A stretch of DNA of 25,623 bases from an uncultured Bacteroidia bacterium. Its GTDB lineage: Bacteria > Bacteroidota > Bacteroidia > J057. This document shows, one piece after another, positions 16,164-24,984 of this stretch. The notes under the pieces are model-generated. The model made no database searches, was not told where the DNA came from, and saw nothing but the letters and a program-made list of their open reading frames with translations. The translations under genes and the position numbers were made by a program. The stretch covers positions 5,116-30,738 of the forward strand of contig CAZLKP010000003.1 in assembly GCA_964560095.1 (NCBI GenBank). Direction: 5' to 3'. The stretch's first letter is position 1, and each line of letters opens with the position of its first letter.

Positions 16164-17189
16164 ATGAAATGCGTCCTTCTTCTCCTTACATTTTTTGGGT
16201 TGCTGGACGGCATCTCCAGACTTCAGGCACAGGACATTCGGGTCATCCAGTCGGGTGATGTAGCAGATAGCAGCTATTACGATATCGCCCGGGTGGATGC
16301 GAACGAGTTTTGGGTAGGCGGAGAAAATGGCATTCTTAAATGTCTGGACACCCTGGGCAACATCTCCAATGTACCCCTTCCTGTTCCCGATAGGCATATT
16401 CTCAAAATCGTCCCCTGGGGTAAATACGTGTATATCGCCGCTGATCAGGGGACCATTTTCCGCTATGATCGCATTCGTGATCGCTGGGTGCATGCCGATT
16501 TCTCTGATCAGGGATTTGAGAAGCTGACCTTCTACGACATGGTGGTGACGAATGAAGGAACCGTAGTAGTCGCCGGTGGCCATCACAAAATCGCCAAAGG
16601 AAAATTGGCGATTCCCCGTGGGTTCATCGCCCGGATGGATGAAGATTTACTGACCAAACCAGAGATCGTGTGGAGTCACGGATTGATGTTTCCGTTTGCT
16701 CTGGAATACAACGAAGCAGACGATGAGGTGATGGCCGTGGCGTTCACAGGTGTGAATTCACAGCTGTTTACCAGCATTGACGGTGTGAACACCTTTCAGC
16801 GGAAAGGATCACTGCCTGGTCTGGTACATCATATCGCCTTGTTTGATGGTGAATTGTGGTATTCGGGCGCCAAAAATCTTCGTTACACCAAAACGGGGAT
16901 CATCGGGAAAATGGGAGAGAAGCCCATGGAAATGGAAGGAGAAGGCTGTATCTGGAGCCTGCTGAAAATCGGCGATCAGGTGTATAGCCTGGCCTTCAAT
17001 GGTGCCATCGTTGGTGGTTCGGACCAATTAACCGACTACGTCTTCAAGGTGCGCCCTGCGCAAACCTCCCTCTACGAAGCTGTTGGTATTTCTGACCAAA
17101 AAGCTTTTGTCGTGGGGCATGGAAGAACGATTCTGATGCTTACCCATTTGTCGAATCAAGAAGGGGTCAATCTTCGTGTCAGGCGTTGA
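16164..17189 (+). CDS. Secreted/periplasmic beta-propeller protein (YCF48/BNR-like)
   Basis: Signal peptide ending LQA|QD. Repeated blades include SYYDIARVDANEFWVGGENGIL, ILKIVPWGKYVYIAADQGTIF, FYDMVVTNEGTVVVAGG and LYEAVGISDQKAFVVGHGRTIL. Confidence 0.7.
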   Translation: MKCVLLLLTFFGLLDGISRLQAQDIRVIQSGDVADSSYYDIARVDANEFWVGGENGILKCLDTLGNISNVPLPVPDRHILKIVPWGKYVYIAADQGTIFRYDRIRDRWVHADFSDQGFEKLTFYDMVVTNEGTVVVAGGHHKIAKGKLAIPRGFIARMDEDLLTKPEIVWSHGLMFPFALEYNEADDEVMAVAFTGVNSQLFTSIDGVNTFQRKGSLPGLVHHIALFDGELWYSGAKNLRYTKTGIIGKMGEKPMEMEGEGCIWSLLKIGDQVYSLAFNGAIVGGSDQLTDYVFKVRPAQTSLYEAVGISDQKAFVVGHGRTILMLTHLSNQEGVNLRVRR

Positions 17190-17257
17190 GGGCCAAATTG
17201 TTTCTTTGACTCGAAAGAACTATCTTCTTGGGTAGAAAACGAATACCTACCCGACAA

Positions 17258-24400: not shown

Positions 24401-24984
24401 TGGCGGAGATTCCCCGTCATCCGTATGTAAATGCCTCTTTTTTGCCGAATCCCAACGGCGAATGTGTGCGTCTTCCGGAAGCAGAAGTGGTGATGCTGGA
24501 CCAAAGTACAGGGACCAGCACTGGCTTTTGGGATTTTGGAGATGGAACGACACAGTCCTATCAGCCTGGTGCCTCGGTGTCTCACAGGTATGATTCGATC
24601 GGTGAATTTCGGGTATTTCTGTATCTGGAGAATGAGGGAGGTTGCACGGACACGGCATCTGCTAATGTATGCACCATTCCTCCTGAATCCTGGCTGTTTT
24701 ACCCCAACGCATTCTCCCCCAATGGCGATGGGATTAATGATGAATTTGTCTTTCAGCAGGGAGGCATTGTGGAATGGAATCTGAGCATTTATGATCGCTG
24801 GGGCACGCAGGTGTTTACCAGCACGGATCCTGCTCTGAGCTGGGATGGCAGGGTGTCAGGGCAGCCTGCTCCGGAAGGTGTCTATGTGTTTTGGATCACT
24901 GGCTATCGGGAGGATGATAATACGCAGCGGGAATTTCGTCCGTTGTATTTTGAGAAGAAAGGAACCATTACCCTGATTCGCTGA
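21442..24984 (+). CDS. Large T9SS type B (gliding-motility-associated CTD) surface protein: CUB + Ig-like + 7 Cys-bracketed repeats + PKD
   Basis: Signal peptide ending SVA|QS. CUB domain (YDHNENYIFTIC...TEQDYDLLRIFDG...LTIHFVSD), PKD domain (FWDFGDG...SHRYDSIG), and CTD YPNAFSPNGDGINDEF...IYDRWG...WDG...EGVYVF. Confidence 0.92.
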   Translation: MTRKQVGYVILTLSLFVAGLSLPTLSVAQSVFQMGDQVVSVCKGFLTDSDAGTTAGHYDHNENYIFTICVPGASEINLDFSSFCTEQDYDLLRIFDGADTFATQIGPAYSGTTILPSMISTGSCLTIHFVSDANVTCTGWTAYWSATIEAPLLPDLILDDPNPICSTTVLTMAFSDPIPCDSVFSGTFQIVGPSGSSITGANPVGCVNDSTTQVSIQLSPGLDESGSYIVTYTGFYLDQCDSLWTLIASDTLEVNDCPLFVDLSATSQTICEGECTDLFADARGGDPATYSFTWSPTGPPGPGPWLACPATTTLYTVTLSDASGASPATDTLTITVLPNPTTQPNIQLCETDPPVTLTASPGGGSWSGAGIANPMGLFHPDSSGPGLHQPLYTAPNGCSTPQLVSVQQIWAGPNRAACPGSPSFFLLGAIPSGGSWGGPNVTPGGTFTPPATSGSIKIWYAAAGCTDTAEIFIGNPVIAPMDTICESAGIVALSANPPGGIWSGNGIMSPSEGEFDPAAAGPGSHTLTYSLFGCSASIDVFVKQIDIGPSFTACPAEAPLSLGLPNPAGGVWSDLFGAVTNPTQGIFDPSANGGNNFTDTIFYTVNGCVASKVAYVRQTTVGIDSLWFCREGDEIFLDWTNTLRSPWDGDWSGPGVIDPDFPGTFDPGVAGPGVHALIYTANTCQDSLVAVVREGGLGNDTSVCSVASPFVIASTYSSGIWRGAGIADTLSGLFDPGEAGIGIHEIEYQNPFGCLDTLLVEVTALPALSMSGLDPQYCYKDSLYALSGQPGGGVWSGPGIQGNAFNPALAGAGGPFVITYTIGFGECQQSASRITNVGPPLEASMNAPADSICEGAFMTLEASGSGGSTGAFQYRWSPGNVNGQTLTVQPKASGTYTVEVSDGCSDPAFVSAYVYVFPGFKIVIQSSEPVCFGEEGYAVAQVQGSGTYDIRWLVNPVQVGDTLRAPTGFNYKMEVTDVASGCIEEAVAEIPRHPYVNASFLPNPNGECVRLPEAEVVMLDQSTGTSTGFWDFGDGTTQSYQPGASVSHRYDSIGEFRVFLYLENEGGCTDTASANVCTIPPESWLFYPNAFSPNGDGINDEFVFQQGGIVEWNLSIYDRWGTQVFTSTDPALSWDGRVSGQPAPEGVYVFWITGYREDDNTQREFRPLYFEKKGTITLIR
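22486..23952 (+). repeat. Seven tandem ~60-aa protein repeats, C-x(10-16)-[GS][GD]xW[SRG]x...F.P...[GS]....I.Y....C
   Basis: The repeats begin CETDPP, CPGSPS, CESAGI, CPAEAP, CREGDE, CSVASP and CYKDSL. Each has GGxWSG or a variant, F(D/N/H/T)P and a closing Cys. They are diverged at the DNA level. Confidence 0.85.

Follow-up and report, generated by a model that had tools for sequence, protein, structure and literature searches.

A conserved envelope gene cassette of Bacteroidota, a probable distant relative of the DUF1501/PSCyt modules

In a 25,623-nucleotide stretch of DNA from an uncultured Bacteroidia bacterium (contig CAZLKP010000003.1; hereafter, the window), six neighboring genes, which we call g2 to g7 (17258–24984, + strand), encode exported proteins and recur together, in the same order, in many other genomes. 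This cassette is real, and it is a variant of a known but unexplained kind of gene set, the DUF1501/PSCyt modules. We think it probable (roughly 60%) that g2–g7 make up one functional envelope module, a diverged version of DUF1501 + PSCyt1/PSCyt2/PSD1 in which the constituents are split into separate polypeptides. The larger, fused modules (PSCyt1, PSCyt2 and PSD1 being PF07635, PF07583 and PF07587) have been described from Planctomycetota, Verrucomicrobiota and Lentisphaerota (Kamneva et al., 2012; PMC3542564), where they are associated with electron transport and described as membrane targeted and of unknown function (PMC3542564; PMC5615132). Our literature search found no paper describing the split cassette.

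Gene layout

The genome to which the window belongs was assembled from a microbial-mat metagenome (94.6% complete, 678 contigs, GC ~51%), and of the runs listed only DNA runs hold the stretch. Between RecQ and the window end lie seven co-directional open reading frames (ORFs) on the + strand, g1 to g7. The first-pass annotation had described them as a single operon of exported proteins with four overlapping junctions and no visible internal terminator, and the sequence bears out the export signals and the overlapping junctions. Signal peptidase I (SPI)-type signals are found in g1 and g7, lipoboxes in g2, g3, g5 and g6, and a twin-arginine translocation (Tat) motif in g4. The genes of the cassette encode, in order, a helical lipoprotein of 305 aa (g2, 17258–18175, lipobox LVLSC), a small helical lipoprotein of 168 aa (g3, 18162–18668, LLAGC), a 445-aa Tat-exported enzyme with a predicted alkaline phosphatase (AP) fold (g4, 18703–20040, NRRSFIRK), a 320-aa lipoprotein with a PSCyt1-type domain (g5, 20037–20999, FVGC), a small lipoprotein of 149 aa (g6, 20996–21445, CVAC), and a Cys-rich, 1180-aa type-B cargo of the type IX secretion system (T9SS) with an SPI-type signal (g7, 21442–24984). 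The overlap between g2 and g3 is 14 nt (18162/18175), and stop and start codons overlap as ATGA at 20037, 20996 and 21442. Pfam and NCBIfam scans of the window proteins gave no match for g1, g3, g4, g5 or g6.

Conservation and co-occurrence of the cassette genes

The Tat protein g4 was searched in 41 related genomes and found in 21 of them, and 20 loci were fetched. Its homologs fall in two tiers, 'orthologues' at 56–69% identity and 'paralogues' at about 40%. The order g2-g3-g4-g5-g6 is seen in 18 of the 20 fetched loci, including all of the paralogous cassettes; in these loci, g7 follows the core in the orthologue-type cassettes only. More widely, relatives occur in at least 542 genomes (one genome per species scanned). 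Among the best 80 of these at least 542 species loci, and counting only loci with contig room, g2 and g3 precede the enzyme gene in 68 of 71, g5 and g6 follow it in 63 of 65, and g7 follows g6 in 52 of 56. Gene order is kept across at least 100 loci at 30–70% identity. The conserved unit is thus g2–g7, with g2–g6 as its core, and the co-location of homologs in other genomes that the first-pass annotation had called for is confirmed.

Presence and absence of the genes go together as well. Across the 41 genomes, g2, g4 and g5 are all present in 19 and all missing in 19, and two of the three are present in 3 fragmentary assemblies; copy numbers also match between the three genes. All three are absent from a same-genus genome that is 99% complete. 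In three genomes the genes are dispersed over several contigs (G021: C24, C40 and C135; G007: C643 and C42; G025: C1, C24 and C5), with g4 by itself, g5-g6(-g7) elsewhere and a third contig for g2. Despite this dispersal g2, g4 and g5 are all retained in G021 and G025, which argues for a functional rather than a merely positional linkage; in G007 (94% complete), g4 and g5 are present and g2 was not found.

The record titles of the carriers almost all name Bacteroidota (Flavobacteriales, Chitinophagales/Saprospiraceae and Sphingobacteriales-type metagenome-assembled genomes, MAGs), and the few that name Proteobacteria may be mis-binned. At least two of the carriers are in culture, going by homologs named from Sanyastnella coralliicola and 'Pontibacter sp. 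G13'. Since an even sample of the phylum holds g4 in only 5 of 300 high-quality genomes, the distribution is patchy: the cassette is frequent within the host's order and among uncultured aquatic lineages, and well-studied families rarely have it.

A profile search over 1.84 billion representatives returned 1169 proteins at E ≤ 0.001, of which 85 matched at E ≤ 1e-30. One relative, at E ~1e-50, belongs to a Myxococcales MAG, in which five genes of matching sizes (L163:3480–8938) are homologous to g2–g6 in order (hhalign probabilities of 97, 99, 100, 99 and 87%). The enzyme there bears a Tat signal and the other four proteins bear lipoboxes; the haem-type motif is CX6CH (SCAGQPGLCH), the g2 homolog weakly matches Pfam PSCyt2, and the cassette has no g7-like gene. 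Because the same five genes stand in the same order in this MAG, the core is an old unit that crosses phyla, and g7 is an addition in one Bacteroidota branch. Each of the three copies read of this five-gene homolog has, immediately 5' of it and in the same direction, a gene for rubrerythrin and one for a DUF3501 protein. Gene sizes around another relative, P0186, follow a similar series; a g4 relative of about 390 aa, P0189, is not within a cassette.

The first of the seven ORFs does not share this history. The product of g1 (16164–17189, +), a secreted propeller-like protein, gave no Pfam match; its family is small (30 clusters), and distant members carry PF07494 or PF14870 propeller domains. 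None of the 63 related loci with contig room contains g1, and it is never seen in the 20 fetched loci. It adjoins the cassette in one close relative only (L159); L160, a more distant relative, has it behind a DUF6134 gene and away from any cassette. Owing to this absence, and to its pairing with DUF6134 elsewhere, we exclude g1 from the unit as a lineage-specific neighbor. Hence the seven-gene unit of the first-pass annotation holds for g2–g7, and the propeller that it counted as a component drops out. The DUF6134 gene precedes the g1 homolog at L159:9256–11035 and at L160:9196–11044; in the window there is no such gene between RecQ and g1.

The Tat-exported enzyme

AlphaFold2 (AF2) models were made for g4 and g2. 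The g4 model (pTM 0.79), compared with the PDB by Foldseek, falls in the AP superfamily (E = 4e-8), with a probability of 1.0 to 3lxq, sulfatases, PMH and AP. LtaP and GPI-EtN transferase are also among the fold matches, and those from the PDB are all hydrolases or transferases. PDB sequence searches with the g4 profile and with a paralog gave no matches. By shape, g4 lies closest, outside its own family, to a planctomycete DUF1501 cluster (TM 0.64/0.74), and DUF1501 is the nearest foreign family by language-model features too. When the 93-sequence g4 family was aligned by hhalign with 31 DUF1501 proteins from relatives, the match ran end to end over 375 columns (E = 1.1e-5) with a probability of 82%, a value that is not decisive by itself. 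The invariant residues coincide: G48-G49, H126, P151-T152 (on P-S), D312, H315, D329, E357, G359-R360 and D377-H378 of g4 all fall on DUF1501 invariants, whose core reads GG, N-H, P-S/T, D-x-H, E-x-G-R and D-H. On account of this coincidence we place g4 as a probable remote homolog of the DUF1501 class with an apparently intact predicted site, and it is the presumed catalytic subunit.

By the Pfam threshold, g4 is not a DUF1501 member, so that the DUF1501/AP enzyme announced by the first-pass annotation stands for its AP fold and its remote kinship and not for family membership. Only 3 of 21 g4 homologs match PF07394 (best E = 0.003), and a genome-wide PF07394 search found three other loci and not g4. 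The homologs weakly match Phosphodiest (7e-9), Sulfatase and DUF1501, and 7 of 21 match TAT_signal. All 1462 g4 relatives found are 'hypothetical', with no Pfam domain.

Directly after the Tat h-region, residues 21–30 (18763–18792, +) form the motif P-Y-(I/L)-L-P-S-G-R-L-F, which is present in 88 of the 93 family members with P21, L24, G27, R28 and F30 invariant. AF2 models this region with low confidence. No obvious A-x-A cleavage site follows the motif. Possibly the signal is not cleaved and acts as an anchor; alternatively, the motif segment may be a docking peptide.

The haem-type lipoprotein and its small companion

The separate haem-c lipoprotein of the first-pass annotation, g5, does have a PSCyt1-type cytochrome c domain (about residues 55–167; nt 20199–20537, +). 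Its profile matches an own-genome PSCyt1 lipoprotein with a probability of 96% (E = 1.8e-9), and the PSCyt1 part of eight PSCyt1-PSCyt2-LamG-PSD1 proteins with one of 93% (E = 4e-7). The canonical motif and the Pfam match are what fail: the putative haem c attachment motif is CX4CH (C-A-N-S-G-C-H, 20235–20255, +), neither g5 itself nor a genome-wide search with PF07635 gave a match between the two, and 1 of 19 homologs matches that family (E = 0.033). CANSGCH aligns on the CXXCH of canonical PSCyt1 with a two-residue insertion. Within the g5 family, CX4CH followed by Asp, together with a downstream Met-Pro, is found in 77 of 77 members, and CXXCH in none of the 77. The g5 profile also weakly matches FoxE (5mab).

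The own-genome PSCyt1 lipoprotein, of 255 aa, is encoded on contig C14 (L035:1249–2016). Of its two PSCyt1-like domains, one carries CAMSGCH (CX4CH) and the other CTGCH (CXXCH); the gene after it encodes a CXXCH protein of 127 aa (L035:2026–2409). As the lipoprotein has both motifs, CX4CH takes the place of CXXCH within one family of this genome.

The C-terminal domain of g5 (about 150 aa) has no family, and its hhalign comparisons with g6, g7 and canonical PSCyt proteins were negative. For g6, likewise, no Pfam or NCBIfam family was found; comparisons with the g5 C-terminal domain, g7 and canonical PSCyt proteins were negative, and an Atlas lead to DUF4625 scored only 0.88. Two motifs are invariant in g6, Y-x-D-G-D-G-D-L-G, which is calcium-loop-like, and D-R-A-G-N-x-S.

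The helical lipoproteins

The g2 model is all helical with a pLDDT of 90. By itself g2 scores 18.6 bits against DUF4214 (PF13946), below the 23.2 cut-off, and its homologs match DUF4214 in 16 of 18 cases (best 2e-8), PSCyt2 in 5 (best 3e-4) and PSD1 in 2. Against the PDB, the g2 profile finds phycobilisome (PBS) linker domains (6e-11), as does the fold comparison; in the AlphaFold Database (AFDB), the fold matches are tandem DUF4214 proteins (TM 0.5–0.58). The nearest foreign structural cluster is a Myxococcota family of 297-aa proteins, 52% of them annotated as PSCyt2 (TM 0.73/0.75). We conclude that g2 consists of tandem DUF4214/PBS-linker-like domains and may border on PSCyt2 (DUF1549).

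Seven of 19 g3 homologs match DUF4214, and g3 has no similarity to PSCyt2 or PSD1. In the comparison of g2 with g3, hhalign gave a probability of 93% for the N-terminal module and a weaker match for the C-terminal one, which marks g3 as a shortened paralog of g2 with both modules. The first-pass annotation had likened the helical lipoproteins to the DUF1800 or DUF1549/DUF1553 partners. For g2 a kinship with PSCyt2 may exist (30% by profile, TM 0.73 by fold), and similarity of g2 and g3 to the one DUF1800 sequence compared was not found; the top 30 AFDB fold matches of g2 contain no DUF1800 protein.

The surface protein

The product of g7 is the CUB-bearing T9SS protein that had been announced. 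On the + strand it comprises a CUB domain (21607–21870, Pfam 1.4e-8), Ig-like repeats, a PKD domain (24505–24666, 1e-10) and a CHU_C sorting domain (24700–24924, 1.6e-15), and it lies above both T9SS type-B thresholds (PF13585, 57.4 bits with a cut-off of 27; TIGR04131, 43.7 bits with a cut-off of 35). It contains 34 cysteines. In 20 related loci, a PorP/SprF gene (PF11751, 1.2e-32) overlaps the g7 stop codon; the 640 nt from g7 to the window end (24985–25623) hold no PorP/SprF gene.

Some Flavobacteriales subclades have an extra T9SS type-A cargo gene directly 5' of g2, which may overlap the g2 start; examples (such as L081:5671–6618 and L056:3297–6536) are Kazal/Ig_7/Por_Secre_tail proteins or PKD/Por_Secre_tail proteins of about 1000 aa.

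Transcription signals and neighboring genes

Within the cluster, the weak terminator-like sites occur at chance frequency (10 seen vs. 9.4 expected). A terminator-like stem-loop of 8 pairs lies at 25131–25153 (+), 147 nt 3' of g7, although as the product of a consensus scan it is weak evidence. Overlapping stop and start codons and the lack of a strong terminator are consistent with a single transcript across the junctions. Scans for sigma-70 promoters and for the Bacteroidota −7 motif TAnnTTTG gave hits at chance level, with none 5' of g1 or g2.

Upstream of g1, the window contains RecQ (13791–15908, minus strand), a cold-shock-domain/DUF3825 fusion (11859–13193, +) and a 245-aa T9SS type-A cargo with a Por_Secre_tail (11016–11753, −); the latter two are also found in the close relative L159 and are apparently unrelated to the cassette. 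An ORF downstream of g7 (25244–25621, minus strand) has no Pfam match. In L159, a sulfotransferase (PF09037; L159:18995–19750, −) and a GFO_IDH_MocA/GH109-like gene lie just 3' of g7 on the opposite strand. Flanking genes seen across the loci include RecQ, a K+ channel, thymidine kinase, FadL, a GDSL lipase, an M23 peptidase, LeuRS, GcpE, a CsgG-like protein and LPP20.

Proposed function and alternatives

Gene order, co-occurrence, folds and remote homologies are the observations from which a working model may be drawn. In such a model, g4 would be the catalyst, a Tat-exported, AP-fold metalloenzyme that keeps D-x-x-H, E-x-G-R, D-H and a His, with the Pro-Thr as candidate nucleophile. The monohaem c domain of g5 (Cys-x4-Cys-His, with Met-Pro as the putative distal ligand) would be membrane-tethered and joined to a second domain; g2 and g3 would serve as lipid-anchored, helical DUF4214/PSCyt2-like scaffolds, and g6 as a small accessory lipoprotein with its calcium-loop-like motif. 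The lipoproteins might keep enzyme and haem domain close to each other at the outer membrane or in the periplasm (on the periplasmic membrane face), where the enzyme would form or cleave an ester-type bond of an organic substrate, whether imported or from the envelope, and the haem domain would pass electrons or sense redox state. Finally, g7 would be a CUB-tipped surface binding arm. Complex formation, haem attachment, catalysis, the nature of the substrate and the link to g7 are what we infer here. The boldest form of this model, in which the cassette is a minimal, split and genetically tractable version of the PSCyt/DUF1501 machinery and performs a previously undescribed haem-coupled, redox-assisted ester cleavage or transfer by the AP-fold enzyme on a surface-captured substrate, is speculative and in our judgment rather unlikely as it stands. 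If it is true, solving the cassette would explain the hundreds of DUF1501/PSCyt paralogs in Planctomycetota, Verrucomicrobiota and some Bacteroidota.

Several results weigh against reading g2–g7 as a split module of this kind. The g4 protein does not match Pfam DUF1501 (PF07394) even at E < 0.1 and stays below the 27-bit gathering score, its 82% profile probability does not settle the matter, and the first-strand Asp that is a metal ligand in many AP enzymes is not evident (FAGGxR). The Cys spacing of the putative haem attachment site is variable, which is unusual (CX4CH; CX6CH in Myxococcales). For g2, the profile match to canonical PSCyt2/PSD1 (residues 43–111) has a probability of 30% and amounts to a motif-level likeness. 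We also tried and rejected kinship of g2 and g3 with DUF1800 (hhalign E = 0.25 and 0.52, respectively, against one sequence, the genome's own DUF1800 protein). When the complex of g2, g3, the N-terminal domain of g5 and g4 was predicted, a control in which g2 was replaced scored as high as the real set, so that the prediction is evidence neither way. The genes flanking the cassettes are not conserved and indicate no substrate, and we therefore name none. Lastly, the paralogous cassettes at about 40% identity lack g7; the surface protein is thus not essential to the core.

Among the alternatives, the one that fares best, although we regard it as doubtful, is that the cassette encodes a plain nutrient-scavenging esterase (a phosphatase, phosphodiesterase or sulfatase), whose cytochrome domain is a haem-less structural or metal-binding module with no redox role. 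The weak Phosphodiest (7e-9) and Sulfatase matches of g4 homologs would fit such an enzyme, as would PDB fold matches made up entirely of hydrolases and transferases, and the non-canonical, variable Cys spacing (CX4CH, CX6CH) could mean that haem attachment has been lost. Yet both cysteines, the histidine and the distal Met-Pro are invariant in 77 of 77 members, as they would be if a His/Met haem c site were in use, there are multihaem cytochromes known to bind haem at CX4CH, and the cassette has no linked transporters or genes of the phosphate or sulfate regulons.

Less likely still is a dedicated periplasmic machine, formed by the five core proteins, that would mature or modify the T9SS cargo g7. 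It might attach or take off a phospho- or sulfo-type group, or deal with the 34 cysteines, before secretion and PorP/SprF-type anchoring. The position of g7 speaks for this idea, since it follows g6 in 52 of 56 loci and the codons of the two often overlap (as ATGA at 21442 in the window), as do its Cys-rich composition and the envelope-modifying transferases of the AP superfamily, with LtaP and GPI-EtN transferase among the fold matches of g4. The paralogous cassettes of the same genomes and the Myxococcales cassette, however, have no g7-like gene, Myxococcota are to our knowledge not users of the T9SS, and canonical DUF1501/PSCyt pairs occur without such a client. That the genes are mere neighbors without a common function is very improbable: they are dispersed in some genomes, but their order is kept over at least 100 loci at 30–70% identity and in a second phylum, and their presence or absence agrees in 38 of 41 genomes, the 3 partial cases being fragmentary assemblies.

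The interest of a split DUF1501/PSCyt module lies in its tractability. The association of DUF1501 with cytochrome-like partners has been an open problem since 2004–2012, and planctomycete and verrucomicrobial genomes hold tens to hundreds of copies. In the cassette, the same ingredients come as small proteins of their own that can be expressed, deleted or crystallized singly. It is present in one or a few copies per genome, and so it is a practical entry point to the DUF1501/PSCyt question. Its members are all 'hypothetical' and without a Pfam family, an annotation gap that corresponds to five new families. New here are the exclusion of g1, the map of g4 onto the DUF1501 residues, the all-or-none co-occurrence table, the finding that the cassette coexists with numerous canonical, fused pairs within one family, and the five-gene Myxococcales homolog with CX6CH.

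Comparison with known systems

The genome of the window has a canonical DUF1800-DUF1501 pair (L034, contig C40), and in genomes of the same family canonical DUF1501 genes show a planctomycete-style expansion, reaching 25 matches or more in a genome. At eight loci read in such genomes (L151–L158, from G001, G008, G010, G013, G014, G017, G018 and G062), the DUF1501 gene is preceded in all eight by a PSCyt1-PSCyt2-PSD1 lipoprotein of 769–1142 aa, with Laminin_G_3 in seven. Given these canonical pairs in genomes of the same family, the split cassette coexists with the fused system as a separate, much more diverged branch.

The cassette and the DUF1501 + PSCyt modules both combine a Tat-exported enzyme, which has an AP fold and the same core residues, with a PSCyt1-type cytochrome c domain and a helical partner that bears LGRxPxxxE-type motifs; in both, there is lipoprotein anchoring and the genes are tightly linked. 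The cassette differs in that the partner is four small lipoproteins instead of one protein of about 1100 aa, without a Laminin_G_3 domain or a recognizable PSD1; in its haem motif, CX4CH instead of CXXCH; in an enzyme below the Pfam DUF1501 threshold; in the co-encoded T9SS CUB/PKD surface protein; and in gene order, which is helical-helical-enzyme-cytochrome rather than cytochrome/helical-enzyme.

Two-gene operons of DUF1800 (PF08811) and DUF1501 likewise place an exported helical partner beside a Tat-exported DUF1501-type enzyme, but g2 and g3 lack detectable DUF1800 similarity and the DUF1800 pairs lack a cytochrome domain. DUF4214 (PF13946) and PBS linker (PF00427) proteins share the helical fold of g2 and, more weakly, of g3; in contrast to PBS linkers, g2 and g3 are stand-alone lipoproteins of a non-photosynthetic host, in fixed linkage to an enzyme and a cytochrome and with no phycobiliprotein partner. 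In its CHU_C/TIGR04131 end and the PorP/SprF partner present in 20 related loci, g7 resembles the SprB/SprF-type pairs of gliding Bacteroidota, from which it is set apart by its N-terminal CUB domain and its fixed place behind an enzyme/cytochrome cassette.

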